Source of the DNA: an uncultured Pseudomonadota bacterium
GTDB taxonomy: Bacteria > Myxococcota_A > UBA796 > GCA-2862545
NCBI GenBank assembly: GCA_903897935.1
Contig: CAIUDO010000223.1
Location: forward strand, 1-16,973
Direction of reading: 5' to 3'
DNA length: 16,973 bases
Made by a program: the position numbers and the translations under genes. The notes under the pieces were generated by a model. The model did not search any database, was not told where the DNA came from, and was given only the letters and a program-made list of their open reading frames with translations. Below, piece by piece: positions 6,529 through 16,973 of the stretch (the stretch's first letter is position 1; each line of letters opens with the position of its first letter).

Positions 6529-7723
6529 GCTCGTCGTCCTCGCCTTCTCGGGCGGCCTCGACACGTCGTTCCTCGTCCCGTGGCTGCGTGAGCGCCGCGG
6601 CGCCGACGTCGTCACCGTCACCGTCGACACCGGCGGCCTCGACGACGCCGAGCGGGCCACGATCGCGGCGCGTGCGCGCGCCCTCGGCGCGGTCGAGCAC
6701 GTCGTCGTCGACGGCCGCGCCGCCTTCTTCGACGAGACCCTCCGCTTCCTCGTGATGGGCAACGTGCTGCGCGGCCACCTCTACCCGCTGTGCGTCGGCG
6801 CGGAGCGCGGCTTACAAGCGCGGGTGGTCGCCGCGGAGGCGCGGCGCCTCGGGGCCCGTGCGGTGGCCCACGGCAGCACCGCGGCCGGAAACGACCAGGT
6901 CCGGTTCGAGGTCGCGCTGCGCACGCTGGCGCCCGAGCTCGAGATCCTCGCCCCCGTGCGCGACGAGGGGTTCTCCCGCGCCGATGAGGTGTTGTTCCTC
7001 GCCGCCCGAGGGGTGGACTGGCCGTCCGAGCGCGCCGCCTACTCGGTCAACGCTGGCCTGTGGGGGGTCACGATCGGCGGCCGCGAGACGGCGGACACGG
7101 TCGATCCGCTCCCCGAGCACGCCTGGGTGTGGTCGCGCGGCGCCTTCGATCCCCCGGCCCCCCCAGAGCGGCACACGGTCACCTTCAAAGCCGGGGTCCC
7201 GTGCGCGCTCGACGAAGTCGCGATGGACCCGGTGACGCTCGTCACCGCGCTGAACACGCTCGGGGCGAGGTTCGGTGTCGGCAGGGGCATTCACCTCGGC
7301 GACACCATCTTCGGCCTGAAGGGGCGCGTCGCGTTCGAGGCGCCCGCCGCGTCGATCCTGGTGACGGCCCACCGCGAGCTCGAGAAGCTGGTGCTCACGC
7401 AGCGCCAGCAGCGCGTCAAAGACCAGGTCGCCGTCACGTATGGCGATCTGGTGCACGAGGGGCAGGCGCTCGACCCCGTCTGCCGTGACATCGAGGCGCT
7501 GTTCCTGCGCTCCCAGGAGCGGGTCACCGGGCAGGTCTCGGTGTTGTTGCGGCCAGGCGCCCTGTTCGTCGAGGGGGTGTCGTCCCCGTGGTCGCTGCGC
7601 GCGGCCTCGCGCGGGGTGTACGGCGAGGCGGCCGGTGAGTGGACTGGGGCCGACGCCCGTGGCTTCTCGCGACTACAAGCGTTGCCCGGCATGCTCCACG
7701 GCCGGGCGGGAGGCGCACTTTGA
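6521..7723 (+). CDS. argG: Argininosuccinate synthase
   Basis: 400 aa. It carries the PP-loop motif VVLAFSGGLDTS and the conserved AHGSTAAGNDQVRFE. ATG at 6521 is preceded by GGAG and overlaps the argR stop (ATGCCTGA). Confidence 0.92.
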   Translation: MPELVVLAFSGGLDTSFLVPWLRERRGADVVTVTVDTGGLDDAERATIAARARALGAVEHVVVDGRAAFFDETLRFLVMGNVLRGHLYPLCVGAERGLQARVVAAEARRLGARAVAHGSTAAGNDQVRFEVALRTLAPELEILAPVRDEGFSRADEVLFLAARGVDWPSERAAYSVNAGLWGVTIGGRETADTVDPLPEHAWVWSRGAFDPPAPPERHTVTFKAGVPCALDEVAMDPVTLVTALNTLGARFGVGRGIHLGDTIFGLKGRVAFEAPAASILVTAHRELEKLVLTQRQQRVKDQVAVTYGDLVHEGQALDPVCRDIEALFLRSQERVTGQVSVLLRPGALFVEGVSSPWSLRAASRGVYGEAAGEWTGADARGFSRLQALPGMLHGRAGGAL

Positions 7724-8808
7724 GGAAGACGCTCGTCGACAAGATCGGCTCGGTCACCCTGAACTGCCGCCTCTCGCGCGAGGTGTACCTCAGCTCGGAG
7801 ATCCCGGCGATCGAAGGCGGCGTGATCGTCGTACGTGTGCTGACCAGCAAGACCACGTACAATCAGCTCGAGCTCCCCTCCGGCCGCTTGTCCAAGATCA
7901 AGCCAGGGGATATCGTCGCTGGCGCGCTCGGACACCGCAAGGCGCTGTTCGGCTACTCTGGGCGCATGCCCGAGTCCGTCCAGGTAGGCGACCGCGTGAA
8001 CCTGCTGAACACTGGCGGGGTCATCGGGGTGTGCGACAGCGTCAACCCCGACTTCGGCGAGCCGTTCGTGTGTGAGGTGCTGGGCCAGGTGCTCCACTTC
8101 CCCTACCTCGGCGCCCGCGTCGGGGTGCCCGCCCACATCACCCAGGGGGCCATCCCCCTCCGCCCAGCGCTCGACGTCGCGGGAGTGCCCGTGGTCGCGG
8201 TCGTCGGCACCTGTATGAACGCCGGCAAGACCTACGCCGCGTGTGCGCTCGTGCAAGCGTTCGCCCACCGCGGGATGAAGGTCGCAGCGGCCAAGGCGAC
8301 CGGGGTGTCGCTCCGGCGCGACGTGCTCGCGATGGAAGACGCCGGGGCCTCGGCCACGCTCACCTTCACCGACCTGGGCGTGGTGACGACCACCGCCGCC
8401 GAGGCGCCGAACATCGTGCGCACCCAGCTCACCGAGCTCGCGAAGGACAAGCCCGACGTCATCGTGATCGAGCTCGGCGACGGCCTGCTCGGCCTGTACG
8501 GCGTCGACGCGATCCTCGACGATCTCCAGCTCCGCGCGGCGTTCACCGCGATCGTGCTCGCCGCGAACGACCCCGTCGCGGCGTGGGGGGGGGTGCGGCT
8601 GCTCGCCGAGCGCCACGATCTGCCTACGACCGTGGTCACCGGGCCGGCGACCGACAACGCGCCCGGCTCGCGGCTCATCGTGCGGGACACCGGGGTGCCC
8701 GCCCACAACGCACGCACCGACCCCGCCGGGCTCGCCGACGTCGTGCTCGCGCGGATCGGCCTGCGTGCGGACCCCCCGTCGGTCGATGACGAGGCCTGGA
8801 ATGACTGA
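7720..8808 (+). CDS. Uncharacterised conserved protein embedded in the arg operon, with a mid-protein Walker-A-like loop GTCMNAGKT (SIMIBI/BioD/CobQ-like). It may be related to the DUF1611 family. This is the candidate for the missing first step of the pathway
   Basis: 362 aa from TTG at 7720 (MRKTLVDKIG...). GGGAGG lies 6 nt upstream, and the start overlaps the argG stop as TTGA. High GC3 throughout. Its stop overlaps the argC start (ATGACTGA). The family assignment comes from memory of motif layout, not from a search. Confidence 0.75.
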   Translation: MRKTLVDKIGSVTLNCRLSREVYLSSEIPAIEGGVIVVRVLTSKTTYNQLELPSGRLSKIKPGDIVAGALGHRKALFGYSGRMPESVQVGDRVNLLNTGGVIGVCDSVNPDFGEPFVCEVLGQVLHFPYLGARVGVPAHITQGAIPLRPALDVAGVPVVAVVGTCMNAGKTYAACALVQAFAHRGMKVAAAKATGVSLRRDVLAMEDAGASATLTFTDLGVVTTTAAEAPNIVRTQLTELAKDKPDVIVIELGDGLLGLYGVDAILDDLQLRAAFTAIVLAANDPVAAWGGVRLLAERHDLPTTVVTGPATDNAPGSRLIVRDTGVPAHNARTDPAGLADVVLARIGLRADPPSVDDEAWND

Positions 8809-9865
8809 CGCCGTCCCGGTCGTGGTGCTCGGGGGCACCGGGTACGTCTCGGGTGAGCTGCTGCGCCTGCTCGCCGGGCACCCCTCCCTGCGCGTGGCGG
8901 CGGTGGTGTCGACCTCGCACGCGGGCGCGCCGGTCACGGCCTCCTTCCCCCACCTCGCGGGGTGTGGCCTCGACGGGCTCGTGTTCTCCGAGCCCTCCGC
9001 GCTGGCCCACCTCGTCCGGTCAGGTGGGCGCCTCGCGGTGTTCGCGGCCACCCCGCACGGCGCGACCGCCCCCTTGGTCGACGGGCTGCTTGGCGAGGCG
9101 GAGGCCGCCGGCACCGAGGCGCACGTCGTCGATCTGTCGGCGGACTTCCGATTCTCGGATCCGACACGGTTCGCCGCGGTCTACGGCTCGCCGCACGCCG
9201 CCCCCCACCGGCTCGCCGCGTTCTCACGCGGCGTCCCCGAGCACGTCACCGGACCGGTCGGGCCGCACGCGGCGCAGCCGGGGTGCTTCGTCACTGCGGC
9301 GGTGCTCGCCGCGTACCCGGCGTTCGCCCTCGGTATCGTCGAGCCGGACGTCTTCGTCTCCGGGGTCACCGGCAGCTCCGGCAGCGGGCGCACACCCGCC
9401 GCGAACACCCACCACCCCGAGCGGCGCAGCACGCTGTACGCCTACGCGCCCCTCAACCACCGCCACGAAGCCGAGATGCGCTCCTTGCTCGGCGTCGCCG
9501 CCGGAGGCGAGCCCGACGTCGCGTTCGTGCCACACTCGGGGCCGTTCGTGCGCGGCATCCACGCCACGTTGCGGCTCTCCCTGACCGCCCCCCGTCAGAC
9601 GGACGAGATCCTGGCCGCGTACCAGGTGTTCTACAGCGGAGCCCGGTTCGTCGACGTCGCCGCGGCGCCGCCGAAGCTCACCGACGTGGTGGGGACCAAC
9701 CGCGCGCGGATCGGGGTGACCGCGCGCGGGCGCGTGCTCGTCGTCACCTGCGTGATCGACAACCTCGTCAAAGGGTCCGCCGGGGGCGGGATCCAATGGA
9801 TGAACCGTCTGCTCGGGCTGCCAGAGGCGGCAGGGCTGACCCAACCTGGGCTCGGGTACCTCTGA
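8801..9865 (+). CDS. argC: N-acetyl-gamma-glutamyl-phosphate reductase
   Basis: It has the N-terminal NAD(P)-binding motif VVVLGGTGYVSGELLRLLAGHP and the active-site Cys motif PGCFVTAAVLA. ATG at 8801 is preceded by GAGG. An alternative in-frame ATG at 8786 has no RBS. Confidence 0.88.
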   Translation: MTDAVPVVVLGGTGYVSGELLRLLAGHPSLRVAAVVSTSHAGAPVTASFPHLAGCGLDGLVFSEPSALAHLVRSGGRLAVFAATPHGATAPLVDGLLGEAEAAGTEAHVVDLSADFRFSDPTRFAAVYGSPHAAPHRLAAFSRGVPEHVTGPVGPHAAQPGCFVTAAVLAAYPAFALGIVEPDVFVSGVTGSSGSGRTPAANTHHPERRSTLYAYAPLNHRHEAEMRSLLGVAAGGEPDVAFVPHSGPFVRGIHATLRLSLTAPRQTDEILAAYQVFYSGARFVDVAAAPPKLTDVVGTNRARIGVTARGRVLVVTCVIDNLVKGSAGGGIQWMNRLLGLPEAAGLTQPGLGYL

Positions 9866-10995
9866 TGACTGCGCTGCTCGACGTCTACCACCAGCTCCCG
9901 ATCGAGCCCGTGCGGGGCGAGGGCGTCTACCTCTACGACGCCGACGGCAAGCGGTACCTCGACGCCTACGGCGGCCACGCGGTGGCGCTGCTCGGGTACG
10001 ATCACCCCCGCCTCGTCGCGGCCCTGCACACCCAGGCGCGCGCGCTGTTCTTCCAGAGCAACGTGGTCCCGCTGACGATCCGGGAGCGCGCCGCCGAGCG
10101 GCTGCTCGCGTTCGGGCCCCCCGGGCTCGAGCGGGTGTTCTTCAGCAACTCGGGCGCCGAAGCCAACGAGAACGCGCTGCGGGTCGCGTTCGCGGCCACC
10201 GGGCGCCGCGAGGTCGTCGCGGTCGAAGGCGCCTTCCACGGGCGCACGGCCGCCGCTGCCGCCGTGACGGCCGGGAGCGACGGCTGGTACGGGTTCCCGC
10301 GCGCCCCGTTCGACGTCCGCTGGGTCCCGTTCGACGACGTCGACGCGCTCACCGCGGCCGTCGGCCCACAGACCGCCGCCCTGATCGTCGAGCCCGTGCA
10401 AGGCGTCGCCGGGGCCCGGGATCTGTCGACCGCGTGGATGCTCGCCGCGCGTCGCGTGACCGAGCAGGCCGGCGCTGCGCTGATCCTCGACGAGGTGCAG
10501 TGCGGGATGGGGCGCACCGGGTACCCGTTCGCGGCGCAGGCGCACGGGGTCACCCCCGACATCCTGACCACCGCCAAGGGCCTCGGCGGCGGCTTCCCGT
10601 GCGCCGCGACGATGTTCTCGGGCGCGCTCGCCAGCACCCTGCGTAAGGGGGACCTCGGCACCACCTTCGGGGGGGGCCCCCTCGCGGCGGCGATGATCGA
10701 GGTCGTCATCGACACCATCGAGCGCGACGGCTTGCTCGCGAACGTGCGGCGTTTGTCCAATCGTCTGCGCGAGGAGGCCATCGGGGGGTGCGTGACTGGG
10801 GCCCAGGGCATGGGGTTCTTGCTCGGGCTGCGTGTCGACCGGCCGGCCCGCGAGGTGCTCGCCGCCTTACGCGACGCCGGCGTGCTGGCCGGCAGCGCCG
10901 GCGACCCGTCCATCGTCCGCCTGCTGCCGCCGCTCGTGCTCGACGACGGCCATGTCGACGCCATCATCGCCGCCCTGCGTGGAGCCTCATCGTGA
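9865..10995 (+). CDS. argD: Acetylornithine aminotransferase (class III PLP aminotransferase)
   Basis: Motifs LDEVQCGMGRTG and the PLP lysine in TTAKGLGGGFP. ATG at 9865 overlaps the argC TGA (TGATG). Confidence 0.9.
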   Translation: MTALLDVYHQLPIEPVRGEGVYLYDADGKRYLDAYGGHAVALLGYDHPRLVAALHTQARALFFQSNVVPLTIRERAAERLLAFGPPGLERVFFSNSGAEANENALRVAFAATGRREVVAVEGAFHGRTAAAAAVTAGSDGWYGFPRAPFDVRWVPFDDVDALTAAVGPQTAALIVEPVQGVAGARDLSTAWMLAARRVTEQAGAALILDEVQCGMGRTGYPFAAQAHGVTPDILTTAKGLGGGFPCAATMFSGALASTLRKGDLGTTFGGGPLAAAMIEVVIDTIERDGLLANVRRLSNRLREEAIGGCVTGAQGMGFLLGLRVDRPAREVLAALRDAGVLAGSAGDPSIVRLLPPLVLDDGHVDAIIAALRGASS

Positions 10996-12002
10996 AGCGT
11001 TTCCTCGACCTCGACGACCTCACCGACGACCGCCTGCAGGCCGTGCTGCGCCGCGCCGCCGCGCTCGAGCGCGCCCCGATCACCGACGATCTGCGCGGCA
11101 AGACGATCGGCCTGCTGTTCATGAACCCCTCCCTGCGCACCCTGGCGTCGATGCAAGCCGGCGCACAGCAGCTCGGCGGCTCCACGTTCGTCATCACGCC
11201 CGGACAAGGCTCGTGGACGCTCGAGACGCGCGACAGCGTCGTGATGGACGGCGACGCGGTCGAGCACGTGCGGGAGGCCATCCCGGTGCTCGCGCAGTAC
11301 GCCGATGCGCTCGGGGTGCGCTGCTTCGCGAAGGGCAAGGACCTCGACGAGGACCTCGCGGACGGCCTGATCCGCCAGATGGCCGACCTGTGCCCGAAGC
11401 CGTTCATCAACCTCGAGTCTGCGCTGGCCCACCCCTGCCAGGCGCTGGCCGACTGGAAGACCCTGGAGGACCTCGACGTGCCGCGGCATGGGGGCCGCTT
11501 CGTGTTGTCGTGGGCCTACCACCCGAAGGCGCTGGCGCTCGCGGTGCCCACCGCCGCGCTCACCATGGCGGCCCGCCGCGGCATGGACGTCACCGTGCTG
11601 CACCCCGAGGGGTACGACCTGCCCGACCCGGTGCTGGGCAAGGCCCGCGCGCTCGCCGCGTCGTCCGGAGGCAGCGTCACCGTGTCGCATGATCGGCGTC
11701 AGGCCCTCGACGGGGCGCACGTCGTGTACTGCAAGAGCTGGGGGGCCCCCCAGCACTACGGGCGCCCCGACGACGAAGCCGTGCTGCGCCGTGAGCTGCG
11801 CGACTGGTGCGTCCAGGAGTCCTGGTTCGGCCCAGCCCGGCCGGACGCAAGGTTCATGCATTGCTTGCCGGTGCGTCGCAACGTGAAGGTCGCCGACGAG
11901 GTGCTGGACGGCCCCCGCAGCGTCGTCGTGCAGCAAGCGGGCAACCGGCTGCACGCGCAGAAGGCCCTGATGATCGAGCTGTTGACGGAAGGAGGCGCCT
12001 GA
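10992..12002 (+). CDS. argF': N-acetylornithine (N-acyl-ornithine) carbamoyltransferase, ArgF'-type. It belongs to the Xanthomonas/Bacteroides AOTCase/SOTCase family rather than classical OTCase
   Basis: GTG at 10992 overlaps the argD stop (GTGA). Several blocks match the Xanthomonas campestris AOTCase sequence as I remember it: LRGKTIGLLFMNPSLRTLASMQAGAQQLGG, VMDGDAVEHVREAIPVLAQYADALGVRCF, INLESALAHPCQALADW and FMHCLP. A Glu sits in the WTLET segment at the position thought to select acetyl over succinyl. That alignment is made by eye. Confidence 0.85.
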   Translation: MKRFLDLDDLTDDRLQAVLRRAAALERAPITDDLRGKTIGLLFMNPSLRTLASMQAGAQQLGGSTFVITPGQGSWTLETRDSVVMDGDAVEHVREAIPVLAQYADALGVRCFAKGKDLDEDLADGLIRQMADLCPKPFINLESALAHPCQALADWKTLEDLDVPRHGGRFVLSWAYHPKALALAVPTAALTMAARRGMDVTVLHPEGYDLPDPVLGKARALAASSGGSVTVSHDRRQALDGAHVVYCKSWGAPQHYGRPDDEAVLRRELRDWCVQESWFGPARPDARFMHCLPVRRNVKVADEVLDGPRSVVVQQAGNRLHAQKALMIELLTEGGA

Positions 12003-12934
12003 TGACCCCAATGGATCGCGAATCTTCGATGATGGCGCTCGTGCGCACCCTCCCCTACGTACGGCTGTACCAGGGCAAGACCTTCGTGGTGAAGCTCGGG
12101 GGGAGCCTCAACCACGACCCCGCCGCCCTCCGCGCGACGATCGAGCAAGTGGGCACCCTGCTCGGCTTCGGCATCCGGGTGATCCTCGTGCACGGCGGCG
12201 GCCCGCAGGCAACGGCGCTCGCCGAGAAGCTCGGCATCTCGACCCCGTTCGTAGATGGTCGCCGAGTCACCTCCAAGGACGCCCTGGGGGCGGTCGTCAT
12301 GGCCATCAACGGCACCGTCTCCACGCAGATCCTCGCCGAGTGTCGCCGCGCCGGGGTGCCTGCGATCGGCCTGTCCGGGGTCGACGCCGCGCTGATCAAG
12401 GCGCGGCACCGCCCCCCCGTCACCCGCACCACCCCAGAGGGGGAGATCAACGTCGATTACGGCGAGGTCGGCTACGTCGCGTCGGTCCAGGCCGACGTGC
12501 TCGAGCGGCTGATCGGCGCCGGATTCACCCCCGTCGTCAGCCCGGTCGCCGCCGACGACGCCGGCCGGGTGCTCAACATCAACGCGGACACCGTCGCCGC
12601 GACGATCGCGGCCGCGGTCGGGGCGACGAAGCTGTTGTTCCTCACCGACGCGCCAGGCATCTTGGGGGATCGCGCCGACCCCGGGTCGCTCATCAGCTAC
12701 GTCGACCTCGCCGGGCTAGAGCGGCTGGAGGCGTCGGGCGCGGTTGCGGGTGGCATGTTGCCGAAGGTAAACGCCGCGCGGGCCGCGCTCGCCGCCGGGG
12801 TGCCGCGCGTACACATCGTCGGCCACGGCGGAAAGGGCGCGTTGCTCGCTGAGGTGTTCACGAACGAAGGCGCCGGGACGCTCATCGTCCGGGACACGTC
12901 CGAGCTGCAGCCGTCCGAGCTCGTGGAGGGGTGA
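12002..12934 (+). CDS. argB: N-acetylglutamate kinase
   Basis: 310 aa. Motifs VVKLGGS, NINADT and GGMLPK. ATG at 12002 is preceded by GGAGG with a 6-nt spacer and overlaps the argF' TGA. Confidence 0.9.
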   Translation: MTPMDRESSMMALVRTLPYVRLYQGKTFVVKLGGSLNHDPAALRATIEQVGTLLGFGIRVILVHGGGPQATALAEKLGISTPFVDGRRVTSKDALGAVVMAINGTVSTQILAECRRAGVPAIGLSGVDAALIKARHRPPVTRTTPEGEINVDYGEVGYVASVQADVLERLIGAGFTPVVSPVAADDAGRVLNINADTVAATIAAAVGATKLLFLTDAPGILGDRADPGSLISYVDLAGLERLEASGAVAGGMLPKVNAARAALAAGVPRVHIVGHGGKGALLAEVFTNEGAGTLIVRDTSELQPSELVEG

Positions 12935-14050
12935 TGGACGACCACGCGCTGCTCGAGTTCCACCGCGCGCTCGTCGCGACGCCGTCGGTCAGCGGCGACG
13001 AGGCCGCCGCGGCCGCGCTCGTCGCCGACACCCTCGCCGCGCGCGGCTGGCCGTCGACCCGGGTGGGCAACAACCTGTACGCGGTCGCCGGGTCGTCGGG
13101 GCCGGTGCTCTGCCTCAGCACCCACCTCGACACCGTGCCCCCCCTCCCCCCGGTGGACGCGCGATCCGTACGACGTCTCCGTAGTGGATGGCAAGGTGTA
13201 CGGGCTCGGCAGCAACGACGCCAAAGCGTCCGCGGCCGCGATGACCGCGGCGTTCGTACGCGTCGCCACCGACGCCGACGCCCTCAACGTGCGGGTGATG
13301 TTGGCGTTCACCGCCGAAGAAGAGACGCGCTGCGAGGGTTCGGAGATCCTGGTCGCGGCGCTCGGCGCGGTCGGCCTGACGCCCTCTGCCGTGATCGTCG
13401 GGGAGCCCACCGGGCTCGACGTCTCGATCGCGCAGAAGGGCCTCCTCGTGCTGGAGCTGGTCGCGAAGGGAGACGCTTGCCACGCGGCCCACGGGCGCGC
13501 GCTCGGCGCCCGCAACGCCATCCACGCGCTCGCGCGTGACCTCGTGGCGTTGGAGCAGGTCGATCTCGGCGGCGACCACCCGTCCCTCGGGCCCGTGACG
13601 GCCGAGCCGACGGTGGTTCAGGCAGGCACCGCGCGCAACATGGTGCCCGGCGAGGCCCGCTGCGTCATCGACGTGCGGGTCAACCCCTCACCGCCCCCCG
13701 GCGCGATCGCGGCGCGCATCGCGGCGGCGATCGAGGGGGAGGTCCGTGTGCTGTCCGATCGCCTGATCCCGTGCGAGATCGACGCGGATCACCCGCTCGT
13801 GAAGGCCGCGTTAACGGCGCGCCCCAGCGCAAAGGTGCTGGGGACGCGCGGGGTGAGCGACCTCGTGTTTTGGTCCCGGGCGGCGCCGGGCATCAAGGTG
13901 GGGCCGGGCCGCACCGAGCGCTCGCACACCCCCGACGAGTACGTGCTGGAGTCCGAGATCCTCGACGGCGTCGCGTTCTACGAGGCCACGCTGCGCGCGC
14001 TCGCCGCCGCCGGCCCCCTTCACCGAGGCCGAACCTCCACCGAGCAGTGA
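12934..14050 (+). CDS. argE: Acetylornithine deacetylase / M20-family deacylase (ArgE-like). It is interrupted by a frameshift in a C7-T-C6 homopolymer tract at 13138-13151, so this is either a pseudogene or a homopolymer sequencing error
   Basis: The N-terminal part in frame 1 contains the M20 motif LCLSTHLDTVPP. After the poly-C tract the M20 sequence continues in frame 2 (RDPYDVSVVDGKVYGLGSNDAKAS...). Deleting one C from the first run gives VPPSPRWTRDPYDV, which restores the expected Trp and the DPY motif. ATG at 12934 overlaps the argB TGA (TGATG). TGA stop at 14048-14050. Confidence 0.78.
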
Positions 14051-14532
14051 TCGCCGCCCTCGGCCATCTGGATCGCGTAGCGCTCGCCGAGCCAGCGATC
14101 GACGCGCGCCGTCGGCATGTCCCGGGTCGACGACGGCTCGCCAAAGGTGCGCACCAGGTCGGCCCGCCGCCGCTCGCAGCCGTCGAACCCGAACGAGAGC
14201 TCGATGCGGGCGACGACGTCGCCGCCCACCGTGACGATCCCGTACAAACGCTCCCCGTCGACCCCGGATGGACCCAGCACGTAGGTGTTCGGCTCGGTCG
14301 GGGACGGCTCGATCGGCCACGACGCCGCCACGCCCACCACCGACGCCCCAACCAGGAACGGCGTCGCGGGGGGCGTCACGCGCGGGGAGACCCACCCCTC
14401 GGGCAGGCCCGGCGCCGCGTCCACCGCCCGGTTCGGGTTGGGGCCCGCCGCGCCGCGCCGCGGCTGCGGGGCAGCCGCCGGCGGAGCCGGCTCGGGAGCC
14501 CCCGCGCACGCCCACAGCGCCGTCACCCACAC
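14020..14532 (-). CDS. Hypothetical 170-aa protein with an N-terminal LWAC segment and an Ala/Pro-rich linker. It lies immediately downstream of the large repeat protein on the same strand, and its 3' end overlaps the end of argE convergently
   Basis: GC3 is high across the ORF. GTG start at 14532, TGA stop at 14020-14022. A signal peptide is doubtful because the n-region has no basic residue and the h-region is short. Confidence 0.45.
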   Translation of the reverse strand: MWVTALWACAGAPEPAPPAAAPQPRRGAAGPNPNRAVDAAPGLPEGWVSPRVTPPATPFLVGASVVGVAASWPIEPSPTEPNTYVLGPSGVDGERLYGIVTVGGDVVARIELSFGFDGCERRRADLVRTFGEPSSTRDMPTARVDRWLGERYAIQMAEGGDHCSVEVRPR

Positions 14533-16973
14533 CGGGACCGCCTCGTCACCACCCCCACCATCACGAGGGCGGCCACCCAGCCCAGGCCCCCCACCCCGCC
14601 GCCGTCACAGCCCGCGCAGCCCTTCGTCGAGGCTCCGGTCTCGGCGGCGACGCCGGTATCAACCTCCCCGCACCCCTCGTCGACCGACCCATCACAGTCG
14701 TTGTCGGCGCCGTCGCACATCTCCGCCGCGCCCGGGTACACGAACCCGTCGCCGTCGTCGCAGTCACCGAGCTCGGCGGAGATCCCGTCGTCGTCGAGGT
14801 CGGCGAGCCCCTCGTCCGCCTGGCCGTCGCAGTCGTCGTCGCGGCCGTTCAGCGCCTCCGGCGCGCCCGGGTACACCGCCGCATCGCCGTCGTCGCAGTC
14901 CCCGGCCGCCTCGGAGAACCCGTCCCCGTCGTCGTCCGTGGCCTCGGTGCCCTCGTCCACCGACCCGTCACAGTCGTTGTCGACCCCGTCCCCGGGGACC
15001 TCCGCGCCGTCGGGGTGGGTGCCCGCCGCGCTGTCGTCGCAGTCCCCGTCGTGCTCCGACCAGCCGTCCCCGTCGTCGTCGTACGCCGCCGTGCCCTCGT
15101 CGACGAGATCGTCACAGTCGTTGTCGACGCCGTCCTCGACCTCGGGCGCGCCCGGGTGCACGCCGGGGTCCCCTTCGTCACAGTCCCCCCCCGACGCGAC
15201 GTACCCGTCTCCGTCGGGATCCTCGACCGCGTCGTCGACCACGCCGTCGCAGTCGTCGTCGCGCCCGTTGCCGAGCACCTCGATAGCCCCGGGGTACACG
15301 AGCAGGTCGCTGTCGTCGCAGTCGCCGGCGACCTCCGACCACCCGTCGCCGTCGTCGTCGCTGCACTCGGTGCCCTCGTCGACGGACCCGTCACAGTCCT
15401 CGTCGACGCCGTCGCACAACTCGATCGCGCCCGGGCGGACCGCGGGGTCGCTGTCGTCACAGTCGCCGCCGGCCTCGGTGAACCCGTCGCCGTCGTCGTC
15501 CCCGGCGGAGGTGCCCTCGTCCACGACCCCGTCGCAGTCGTCGTCGACGCCAGGCGCCAGCTCCGGCGCGCCCGGGTACACAAGCGGGTCGCTGTCGTCG
15601 CAGTCGGGGCCCCCACCCCCGTCGAACCCGTCCCCGTCGACGTCGACGAGGTCGGCGCCGTCGCAGTCGTCATCGACCCCGTCGTACGGGACCTCGCCGG
15701 CGCCCGGGCCGACGTCCGGGTCCGCGTCGTCACAGTCCCCCACCTCCGCGACAACCCCATCGCGCGGCGCACACGCGACCTCGGGCGGCTCCACCCCCCA
15801 CCCGTCCCCGTCCCCGTCGGGGTACCACTCGGGCGCGTCCACCGCGTCTTCGTCGACGACCCCGTCGCAGTCGTCGTCGAGCGCGTTGCACCACTCGTCC
15901 AGGCCCGGCGCGATGGTGGCGACTGCGTCGTCGCAGTCGGTGTTGTCGGCGACGTACCCAAGTGGCTCCGCGCACGCGGCCACCGGGGCCAGCGAATCGC
16001 CGAACCCGTCGCCGTCCGCGTCGGCGAACCAGGTCGGCCCGGCGCCGTCGTCCACGACGCCGTCACAGTCGTCGTCCCGGCCGTCACAGACCTCCACGCC
16101 GGCCGGCGACACCGCCGCGTCGGCGTCGTCGCAGTCCGCGCGATCCCGCACATAGCCCGACGGCGCCGCGCAGTCCCCGACCGACGACGCCGGGTCGCCG
16201 AACCCGTCCCCGTCGGCGTCGGCGTACCAGGTCACATACACGATGCCTTCGTCCACGCCCCCGTTGCAGTTGTTGTCGGCGCCGTCGCACAGCTCGTCCG
16301 CGGCCGGGTACGTGTTGGCGTCGCGGTCGTCGCAGTCGTCCAGGTTGCCCGCGGTGCCCTCCGCAGGCGCGCACGCGCCGAGCGGCGCCGCGGCGTCCCC
16401 GAACCCGTCGCCGTCCGCGTCGGCCCACACGGTCCCGGCGCCGACGTCCACCGACGGATCCGCGTCGTCGACGAGGCCATCACAGTCATCATCGATCGTG
16501 TTGCACACCTCGACCGCGTCGGGGCGGACCGCTGACGACGAATCATCACAGTCGGTCGCGTCCGCGACCGCGCCACCGTCCGGTCCGCACGACCACGACG
16601 TCGCGCTCGGGTCGCCGAACCCGTCGCCGTCCGCGTCGGCGTGCCACGCGCTGCCGGACGCGGCGTCGCGGTCGGGGTCGGCGTCGTCGACGAGCCCGTC
16701 GCAGTCGTCGTCGTAGGCGTTGCACACCTCGGGGGCGTCGGGGCGGACCGCGGCGTCGGCGTCGTCGCAGTCGGAGGCGTCGGCGAGCGAACCGGCGGGC
16801 GGATCACACGCGGCCACCGACGACGACGCGTCGCCGAACCCGTCGAGGTCCAGGTCCGGGTGCCACTCCGCGAACGACGTAGGATCGACCGATGGATCTC
16901 CGTCGTCGGCGAGCCCGTCGCAGTCGTCGTCGAACCCGTTGCAGACCTCGGACGCCGCTGGGTGGACCGCCGG
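14523..16973 (-). CDS. Very large secreted repeat protein whose N-terminus lies beyond the window. It is built from about 50-aa Asp/Cys-rich putative metal/Ca-binding repeats of the MopE-like 'putative metal-binding motif' class (thrombospondin-type-3-like) and ends in a MYXO-CTERM-like anchor (GCAGCDGGG-hydrophobic-RRSR)
   Basis: The minus-strand frame is open from 14526 to the window edge (codons checked through 16973). At least 13 repeats of the form DCDDxDAxVxPGAxExCDGxDDDCDGxVDEG / WYxDADGDGFGD are present. The C-terminus reads KGCAGCDGGGVGGLGWVAALVMVGVVTRRSRCG. TGA stop at 14523-14525. Confidence 0.8.
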   Translation of the reverse strand, partial: PAVHPAASEVCNGFDDDCDGLADDGDPSVDPTSFAEWHPDLDLDGFGDASSSVAACDPPAGSLADASDCDDADAAVRPDAPEVCNAYDDDCDGLVDDADPDRDAASGSAWHADADGDGFGDPSATSWSCGPDGGAVADATDCDDSSSAVRPDAVEVCNTIDDDCDGLVDDADPSVDVGAGTVWADADGDGFGDAAAPLGACAPAEGTAGNLDDCDDRDANTYPAADELCDGADNNCNGGVDEGIVYVTWYADADGDGFGDPASSVGDCAAPSGYVRDRADCDDADAAVSPAGVEVCDGRDDDCDGVVDDGAGPTWFADADGDGFGDSLAPVAACAEPLGYVADNTDCDDAVATIAPGLDEWCNALDDDCDGVVDEDAVDAPEWYPDGDGDGWGVEPPEVACAPRDGVVAEVGDCDDADPDVGPGAGEVPYDGVDDDCDGADLVDVDGDGFDGGGGPDCDDSDPLVYPGAPELAPGVDDDCDGVVDEGTSAGDDDGDGFTEAGGDCDDSDPAVRPGAIELCDGVDEDCDGSVDEGTECSDDDGDGWSEVAGDCDDSDLLVYPGAIEVLGNGRDDDCDGVVDDAVEDPDGDGYVASGGDCDEGDPGVHPGAPEVEDGVDNDCDDLVDEGTAAYDDDGDGWSEHDGDCDDSAAGTHPDGAEVPGDGVDNDCDGSVDEGTEATDDDGDGFSEAAGDCDDGDAAVYPGAPEALNGRDDDCDGQADEGLADLDDDGISAELGDCDDGDGFVYPGAAEMCDGADNDCDGSVDEGCGEVDTGVAAETGASTKGCAGCDGGGVGGLGWVAALVMVGVVTRRSRCG
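14717..16973 (-). repeat. Tandem, diverged coding repeats of about 150 bp (gtcgtcgtcgcagtcgtc-type strings) that encode the DCDD/DDDCDG modules
   Basis: Motif strings recur periodically through the CDS at DNA and protein level. The plus-strand Ser/Pro-rich shadow ORFs are a by-product of these repeats. Confidence 0.7.

Follow-up and report, generated by a model that had tools for sequence, protein, structure and literature searches.

A P-loop protein of bacterial arginine operons is predicted to carry out the missing N-acylation of glutamate

How does an arginine pathway begin when no gene for its first step is found beside the others? The question is raised by a 16,973-nucleotide stretch of DNA (the window) that forms contig CAIUDO010000223.1 of assembly GCA_903897935.1, from an uncultured bacterium whose closest relatives are Myxococcota/'Deltaproteobacteria' metagenome-assembled genomes. 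The window carries an arginine operon in the order argR-argG-X-argC-argD-argF'-argB-argE, in which a gene without assigned family, here called X, is overlap-coupled between argG and argC. No argA, argJ or GNAT gene was found in the 17-kb window beside argB, argC, argD, argF' and argE; this applies to the ORFs (open reading frames) that were scanned, the short ORFs 3632-4015 and 4158-4955 lying outside the scan. Arginine-making bacteria without a recognisable N-acetylglutamate synthase are numerous and represent an old gap in pathway reconstruction. The analysis described here suggests that X probably forms N-acyl-L-glutamate and thereby replaces ArgA or ArgJ. This role is the best supported one because of the pathway gap, the synteny of X, reduced clusters that consist of X, argC and argB, the presence of argH alongside X, and the published finding that the family does not co-occur with ArgA.

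Gene X (7720-8808, + strand) translates to 362 aa. It starts with TTG at 7720, in overlap with the argG stop codon (TTGA), and the argC ATG at 8801 overlaps the X stop codon at 8806-8808 (ATGACTGA). The TTG start is credible, because homologues begin with MKxxLLDKIGS at the same position. A preliminary description of this DNA had reported the gene inside the arg operon, its coupling on both sides, a mid-protein GTCMNAGKT loop (residues 163-171, nt 8206-8232), the identities of ArgR, G, C, D, F', B and E, and the lack of argA, argJ or GNAT genes in the window. All of these observations were confirmed, the gene identities by Pfam and NCBIfam matches and the lack of an acylating gene among the scanned ORFs. 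Scans of X itself gave no family above threshold in either collection. NCBIfam returned nothing, and the sub-threshold Pfam matches covered only the P-loop: MobB (22.9 bits), DUF1611 (PF07755, 21.4 bits against a cut-off of 25, limited to residues 157-191) and CbiA (17.5 bits against 25.4). The AAA_26 model did not match X and was weakly matched by 5 of 59 family members. Sequence searches of the PDB with X and with a 30-sequence profile found dethiobiotin synthetase alone, at E 0.13-0.23.

More than 6,700 homologues of X (E ≤ 0.001) were found among 90%-identity cluster representatives. The best 120 of these are 68-98% identical to X and ∼358 aa long, and all 59 source-named proteins among them carry the name 'hypothetical'. 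When 1.84 billion representatives at 50% identity were searched with a profile, 1,694 clusters matched, and for 270 of these E was at most 1e-30. The gene neighborhood was analyzed by a scan of species-representative genomes, which gave at least 600 matches; 80 loci were kept for synteny counts. They belong to Eisenbacteria, Planctomycetota, Acidobacteriota (Thermoanaerobaculia, Holophagales), Myxococcota, Armatimonadota and Gammaproteobacteria (Steroidobacteraceae, Woeseiaceae). X lies directly upstream of argC in every one of the 80 loci, across at least six phyla, and the arrangement of arg genes around X is far from chance. Most often the genes are arranged as argR-argG-X-argC-argD-argF'-argB, with argE next or, in gammaproteobacterial loci, argH. 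The co-occurrence with argF'-type clusters that had been proposed as a check was found: argR-argG lies upstream and argD-argF'-argB downstream in nearly all loci. Homologues of 31-37% identity are still located in arg clusters (L084, L088, L091), in L084 in the order argG-argH-X-argC-argD-argF-argB. In four Steroidobacteraceae loci (L064, L077, L078 and L080, at ∼10001-13100) the cluster is cut down to (argR)-X-argC-argB, without argG, argD and argF'. Such a reduced cluster would comprise exactly the putative first step together with steps two and three. A role of X as a replacement for ArgH was ruled out, since there are operons that contain both X and argH.

X is, by sequence, the orthologue of Steroidobacter denitrificans ACG33_14140 (P0371; 57% identity over the full length, with 349 of 362 residues aligned and E 3e-139), a protein that bears the UniRef name 'DUF1611 domain-containing' and that we infer to be the same as RefSeq tag ACG33_RS14135. 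The S. denitrificans locus (L097) has the order argR-argG-X-argC-argD-argF'-argB-argH. It resembles the operon of the window in the position of X, in a non-Glu residue in ArgF' and in a weak fold link to DUF1611. It differs in belonging to another phylum and in having argH at its end and no argE, whereas the operon of the window ends with an M20-type argE. Independently, Price et al. (GapMind-2026 preprint) predicted ACG33_RS14135 as the missing ArgA. According to the preprint, the family is virtually always found in arg operons and never co-occurs with ArgA homologues across genomes. Price et al. also point out that S. denitrificans, for which growth on minimal medium is reported, encodes no ArgA homologue. 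The preprint also describes a weak Foldseek match to the D-glutamate acetyltransferase structure 7XRJ, and A/P/S/V at position 92 of the linked ArgF' proteins. The idea that the X family provides the missing ArgA is therefore already contained in this 2024-26 preprint, to which X adds a Myxococcota-type member. Two features go beyond it: an N-terminal domain without known fold, and a catalytic domain that looks like a dethiobiotin-synthetase-type NTPase (nucleoside triphosphatase). Taken together, the pathway gap, the synteny with argC and the orthology to ACG33_14140 uphold the earlier suggestion and make X a strong candidate for the missing glutamate N-acylation step.

The acyl group was assumed in the preliminary description to be acetyl. 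This assumption was not supported by the carbamoyltransferase of the operon. ArgF' (10992-12002, +; 336 aa) is a predicted N-acylornithine carbamoyltransferase that matches NF003384 with 391 bits (cut-off 288). Its Val90 (GTC, nt 11259-11261) aligns with Glu92 of the Xanthomonas N-acetylornithine transcarbamylase. The corresponding motif is GDTEEH in the Xanthomonas wild type, GDT[V/A/S]EH in the PDB mutants and GDAVEH in the window, and the best PDB match of the window protein is the E92V mutant 3L06. None of 62 related loci has Glu here; the counts are 53 for A, 4 each for V and S, and 1 for Q. A, P, S or V at the Glu92 position switch the preference of the Xanthomonas enzyme to N-succinylornithine, as in Bacteroides (literature including the preprint of Price et al.). 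The intermediates of the operon's pathway are most likely succinylated and not acetylated, as judged from the Val in ArgF' and from the fact that Glu never occurs in the related loci. Formation of N-acetyl-L-glutamate by X within a Xanthomonas-type acetylated pathway is improbable, although NF003384 is a model for N-acetylornithine carbamoyltransferase, acetyl-type names are also attached to the models matched by ArgB and ArgE, and DgcN, the DUF1611 protein to which X had been compared, is an acetyltransferase. Family-level names of this kind do not separate acetyl from succinyl, and the specificity residue speaks for the latter. One consequence concerns complementation of an E. coli argA mutant, which could fail despite a correct prediction for X: the E. 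coli enzymes are acetyl-specific and would not accept a succinylated product.

A succinyl-type arginine pathway is described for Bacteroidetes, with the N-succinylornithine transcarbamylase of B. fragilis, the putative GNAT-type N-succinylglutamate synthase BT3761 and the desuccinylase BT3549. It shares with the operon of the window the small residue in ArgF', an M20-type deacylase and a linear course that needs stoichiometric synthesis of N-acylglutamate. The first enzyme differs: it is a GNAT protein in Bacteroidetes, while in the operon of the window a P-loop protein stands in that place and no GNAT was found in the window. The canonical enzymes for the step proposed for X, namely ArgA (amino-acid kinase plus GNAT), ArgJ, the short GNAT-type N-acetylglutamate synthases and the ArgH-A fusions, show no sequence or fold relationship to X, which has no GNAT, amino-acid-kinase or ArgJ domain. 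A pathway with a LysW-type carrier protein was also considered and discarded; the overlapping genes leave no room for a small ORF, and ArgF' is of the N-acylornithine type.

The AlphaFold2 (AF2) model of X (pLDDT 90.7, pTM 0.88) consists of two domains. The N-terminal domain (∼residues 1-147, nt 7720-8160) is beta-rich and contains the near-invariant residues E51, R73 and P84; a fold search of the PDB gave no match for it. The C-terminal domain (∼residues 150-350) has a SIMIBI-class P-loop fold. A Foldseek search with the model identified dethiobiotin synthetase 3of5 (E 2.8e-7), with signal recognition particle (SRP) GTPases ranked next, and the DUF1611 protein 2obn (E 1.1e-6). Conservation was counted in 59 divergent family representatives of 29-60% identity. 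G169, K170, K192, E251, D284 and P84 are invariant in all 59. T171 is Thr in 58 and Ser in one, D201 is Asp in 57 and Glu in two, and R73 is Arg in 58 and Lys in one. The cysteines C16, C105 and C175 are variable. Three conserved segments of the C-terminal domain correspond to nucleotide-binding elements: the Walker A motif GTCMNAGKT (G163-T171, with K170 as its Lys), the segment K192-A-T-G-V-S-L-R-R-D201 (nt 8293-8322), in which the Lys follows strand beta2 and the Asp starts the next helix, and the Walker-B-like strand V-I-V-I-E251-L-G-D-G (nt 8458-8484), equivalent to V-L-V-E115-G-A-G-G of BioD. By phmmer and hhalign against dethiobiotin synthetase, K170/T171, K192 and E251 of X align with K15/T16, K37 and E115 of BioD, and D201 probably corresponds to D54. 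These BioD residues hold Mg-ATP and the phosphorylated carbamate.

A P-loop protein in an arg operon could also be an accessory NTPase, that is, a metallochaperone of the M20 enzyme, a regulator or scaffold, or a carbamate-phosphorylating supplier of carbamoyl phosphate to ArgF'. The SIMIBI class includes the metallochaperones HypB and UreG as well as Mrp/ApbC, dethiobiotin synthetase is known to phosphorylate a carbamate, and paralogues of the X superfamily adjoin genes resembling ornithine or aspartate transcarbamylase (OTCase/ATCase) in the plasmid clusters L094 and L096. Several observations make such a role very doubtful. The gammaproteobacterial operons have X and no M20 gene, the cysteines are variable across the family, and the P-loop of X is without the signature Lys of MinD/ParA-type switches. 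The reduced clusters join X to argB and argC, not to argF'. Furthermore, an accessory role would leave the ArgA gap open in S. denitrificans, which is reported to grow on minimal medium. Of the three variants, the M20 metallochaperone was rejected as a main idea, given the variable cysteines and the retention of X in loci without argE; the carbamate-kinase-like supply of carbamoyl phosphate was kept as a minor rival only.

The predicted role as an N-acyl-L-glutamate-forming enzyme leaves two mechanisms to be weighed, and these differ in the closest relatives they assume for X. The preliminary description compared the size and layout of X with DUF1611 proteins such as DgcN (PF17396 plus PF07755; structures 7XRJ, 2OBN and 2G0T). 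DgcN is an acetyl-CoA:D-glutamate N-acetyltransferase. The comparison holds for the C-terminal half, where the P-loop domain of X matches the DUF1611 fold, and for that half only. PF07755 remains below threshold, and PF17396, the Rossmann-like N-terminal domain of DgcN, is absent. In the structure prediction, likewise, only the C-terminal domain had a DUF1611 fold match, and the N-terminal domain of X had no match in the PDB. The fold match to DUF1611 is no better than those to dethiobiotin synthetase, CTP synthase and SRP GTPases. In the AF2 model, the DgcN link of X is thus real at the level of the fold and non-discriminating.

Profile comparisons were used to examine the relationship further. 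Against the PDB, the best match of the 59-member family profile was the dethiobiotin synthetase of M. tuberculosis (E 2.5e-4), followed by FtsY and MobB, and no DUF1611 chain appeared at E up to 10. A genuine DgcN was found in Pantoea ananatis beside dgcA (PF07755 260.9 bits, PF17396 84.6 bits; match to 7XRJ at E 7e-111). Aligned by hhalign with this protein, the X-family profile gave a probability of 1.3% over 35 columns, those of the P-loop (E 0.039). The values were 0.8% over 43 columns for 7xrj (E 0.075), 4.4% over 63 columns for 2obn (E 0.0093), 16% over 112 columns for 2g0t (E 0.0016) and 22% over 35 columns for a four-sequence DUF1611 alignment (E 9.5e-4). E. coli BioD, by comparison, reached 70% over 102 columns (E 3.9e-5). 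The higher probability for BioD is explained by the motifs. In X and its paralogues, GTxxxxGKT is followed after 22 residues by a Lys (K-[AL]-[TS]-G), and the third motif is hhhhE-L-G-D-G; BioD has GTDTEVGKT, K37 and VEGAGG. DUF1611 proteins have GTDxxxGK[M/R]xT, F-[R/L]-ATGQTG and EGQG[S/A] where X has GTCMNAGKT, AAKATGVS and ELGDG. The Walker A Thr and the equivalent of Lys37 are kept in X and lost in the four DUF1611 sequences examined. X carries the BioD-type set of residues (P-loop GTxxxxGK[ST], Lys after beta2, acidic Mg ligands), while it scores below the gathering threshold of the dethiobiotin-synthetase-like Pfam models, CbiA among them.

X is also distinct from both groups in context and architecture. 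DgcN has the racemase DgcA as its partner in D-Glu catabolism, whereas X belongs to arginine biosynthesis operons, and outside the P-loop the two show no significant profile match. BioD is a single domain of 220 aa acting on diaminopelargonate and CO2, to which X adds an N-terminal domain of 150 aa and ∼40 further C-terminal residues. X is found in arg and not in bio operons. The P-loop clade of BioD includes the CobB/CobQ amidases, the synthetase domain of CTP synthase and formate-tetrahydrofolate (THF) ligase. The name 'DUF1611 domain-containing' is given in RefSeq or UniRef to several members of the X superfamily (L092 3530-4582, L095 4515-5612, L096 4545-5573 and P0371). These proteins score 16-23 bits on PF07755 (cut-off 25) and have no PF17396. 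The label hides a separate two-domain family. RefSeq plasmid proteins with this name were accordingly discarded as DUF1611 references; they are full-length X paralogues below the Pfam threshold.

Two readings of the reaction result. X could be an acyl-CoA:L-glutamate N-acyltransferase for succinyl- or acetyl-CoA (coenzyme A), working like DgcN, with the P-loop holding the CoA phosphates and no NTP being consumed; such a mechanism is implied by the GapMind-2026 preprint. The Foldseek match to 2obn, weak PF07755 matches in 13 of the 59 representatives and the [K/R]-A-T-G motif after beta2 and E-G-x-G strand that X and DgcN have in common are consistent with it. Moreover, DgcN works on the amino group of glutamate (PDB title), and ArgA-type enzymes are generally known to use acyl-CoA. 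The unrelated N-terminal domain, the hhalign matches to DgcN and its relatives of 35 P-loop columns at a probability of 1.3-22%, the sub-threshold PF07755 score without PF17396 and the kept Walker A Thr and Lys37 equivalent argue in the other direction, and we consider this transferase unlikely.

Alternatively, X may form N-acyl-glutamate as an ATP-dependent ligase. This combined proposal is tentative. A Mg-NTP-dependent ligase is slightly favored over the acyl-CoA transferase because of the intact NTPase residues, the closer sequence relation to dethiobiotin synthetase and the chemistry of the clade. BioD, CobB/CobQ, CTP synthase, formate-THF ligase and adenylosuccinate synthetase form C-N bonds via phosphorylated intermediates. 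In the proposed reaction, the C-terminal dethiobiotin-synthetase-like domain would phosphorylate a carboxylate of free succinate with the help of K170/T171, K192, D201 and E251. The acyl phosphate would then be attacked by the alpha-amino group of L-glutamate, which the N-terminal beta domain (R73, E51) would help to hold, and N-succinyl-L-glutamate, ADP and Pi would result. The N-acylated glutamate made by X would enter the pathway encoded by the operon and be processed by the kinase ArgB, the reductase ArgC and the transaminase ArgD. ArgF' would carbamoylate N-acylornithine, the M20 'ArgE' would deacylate N-acylcitrulline, and ArgG and an ArgH encoded elsewhere would complete the synthesis.

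Several points weigh against this interpretation. To our knowledge, all known N-acylglutamate synthases use acyl-CoA or transacylation. The same is true for DgcN, the only characterised enzyme of related fold that acylates glutamate. The conserved Lys, Asp and Glu residues of X may instead serve in binding the phosphates of CoA or as a general base, and the equivalence of D201 and Asp54 is supported by the phmmer alignment while hhalign sets the gap otherwise. The assignment of succinyl is drawn from one specificity residue studied in two enzymes, and the absence of argA and argJ refers to the 17-kb window, not to the whole genome. Finally, no experimental work on any member of the X family was found in the literature, including the preprint.

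If its predicted function is correct, the X family supplies the missing arginine step in six or more phyla with high abundance in soil, sediment and freshwater, and genome-based predictions of auxotrophy for the phyla that carry it would be wrong without it. It would also extend arginine synthesis of the succinyl type beyond Bacteroidetes. Should the enzyme be ATP-dependent rather than acyl-CoA-dependent, it would represent a new chemical solution for the committed step, arginine biosynthesis would be opened without acyl-CoA, and the DgcN analogy of the literature would be misleading. A more far-reaching proposal, which we regard as speculative, is that X founds a CoA-independent, ATP-dependent class of 'N-succinyl-L-glutamate synthetase' in which a dethiobiotin-synthetase-like ligase is combined with a previously unseen beta-domain and proceeds via succinyl phosphate, the plasmid-encoded paralogues being natural-product amide ligases.

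Outside the arg operons, distant paralogues of X with 24-29% identity align over both domains (hhalign E 1e-29 to 5e-46). Full-length paralogues of 24% identity are encoded on plasmids of Priestia megaterium (L094 346-8510, hhalign E 5e-46) and Bacillus paranthracis (L096 1-6741, E 1e-29). Besides the OTCase/ATCase-like gene, their clusters, which resemble those for natural products, contain two ATP-grasp genes of the L-amino-acid-ligase type, a split thiamine pyrophosphate (TPP) decarboxylase, an M20 peptidase, an LLM oxidoreductase, a phosphoenolpyruvate (PEP) mutase and TauD. Such a gene content suggests that an enzyme of this type is also used in phosphonate or peptide biosynthesis. Divergent X-like genes of 33-36% identity adjoin RimK-type ATP-grasp ligases in L086 (267-1202) and L090 (264-4664), in the latter together with a class-V aminotransferase and an M20 peptidase, and may reflect another glutamate-related use of the family. 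Other paralogues adjoin ABC ATPases (Paracoccus, Sulfitobacter). On a Microvirga ossetica plasmid (L093 3521-5284), a 587-aa 'transposase' ORF combines a full X-like protein, at residues 17-331 (hhalign E 9e-37), with a fragment of a Mutator-family transposase (PF00872), probably an insertion artefact or a pseudogene. Within the gammaproteobacterial arg loci, a 4HBT (hotdog) thioesterase gene is located ∼1-5 kb downstream of argB in eight cases (L033, L044, L049, L054, L055, L069, L073 and L097), and two GNAT-like ORFs were seen 1-2 kb downstream of argB in six Steroidobacteraceae loci.

The remaining operon genes, all on the + strand, were assigned as follows. The arginine repressor gene argR (6064-6528, 154 aa) matches PF01316 and PF02863 as well as TIGR01529 (E 9e-29); the related contig L087 has the same argR gene. 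Argininosuccinate synthase is encoded by argG (6521-7723, 400 aa; PF00764, PF20979; TIGR00032 295 bits, cut-off 268), and argC (8801-9865) matches TIGR01850 with 273 bits (cut-off 233.6). ArgD (9865-10995, 376 aa) is a class-III aminotransferase (PF00202, E 2e-89) that matches the NCBIfam acetylornithine and succinylornithine transaminase models, and is the predicted N-acylornithine aminotransferase. ArgB (12002-12934, 310 aa; TIGR00761 212 bits, PF00696), the predicted N-acylglutamate kinase, consists of the kinase domain only and has no GNAT tail. All seven junctions of the operon overlap, argR and argG by 8 nt and the following ones as TTGA, ATGACTGA, TGATG, GTGA, TGATG and GTGA, so that the whole unit from argR to argE appears to be translationally coupled. 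The related loci in other phyla mostly have short intergenic gaps instead of overlaps.

The last gene, argE (12931-14050), encodes an M20 deacylase and putative N-acylcitrulline hydrolase, with PF01546 and PF07687 matching its C-terminal part. It is frameshifted (+1) by one extra C in the C-run at 13132-13138, as seen by comparison with the 92%-identical contig L087: the region 13120-13145 reads GTGCCCCCCCTCCCC in the window and GTGCCCGCCTCCCC in L087, where the ORF is intact (371 aa). Either argE is a true pseudogene, or the frameshift is an artefact of sequencing or assembly in the homopolymer.

Family matches were obtained for 9 of the 13 ORFs scanned. The operon is flanked by genes for a TPR protein, a Band-7 protein, two ORFs without family and a MopE-repeat protein. 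The region 3550-5950 (+) shows a strong third-codon-position GC signal, which indicates coding in two + frames at ∼3632-4750 and ∼4158-5950; ORFs 4061-4747 and 5121-5990 gave no Pfam family when scanned. This region is not common to L087, with which homology starts at ∼5951. Downstream of the operon, a 764-aa protein (14523-16817, - strand) contains 13 'putative metal-binding MopE' repeats (PF11617, E 2e-121), and its counterpart in L087 is 1,407 aa long and carries a C-type lectin domain.

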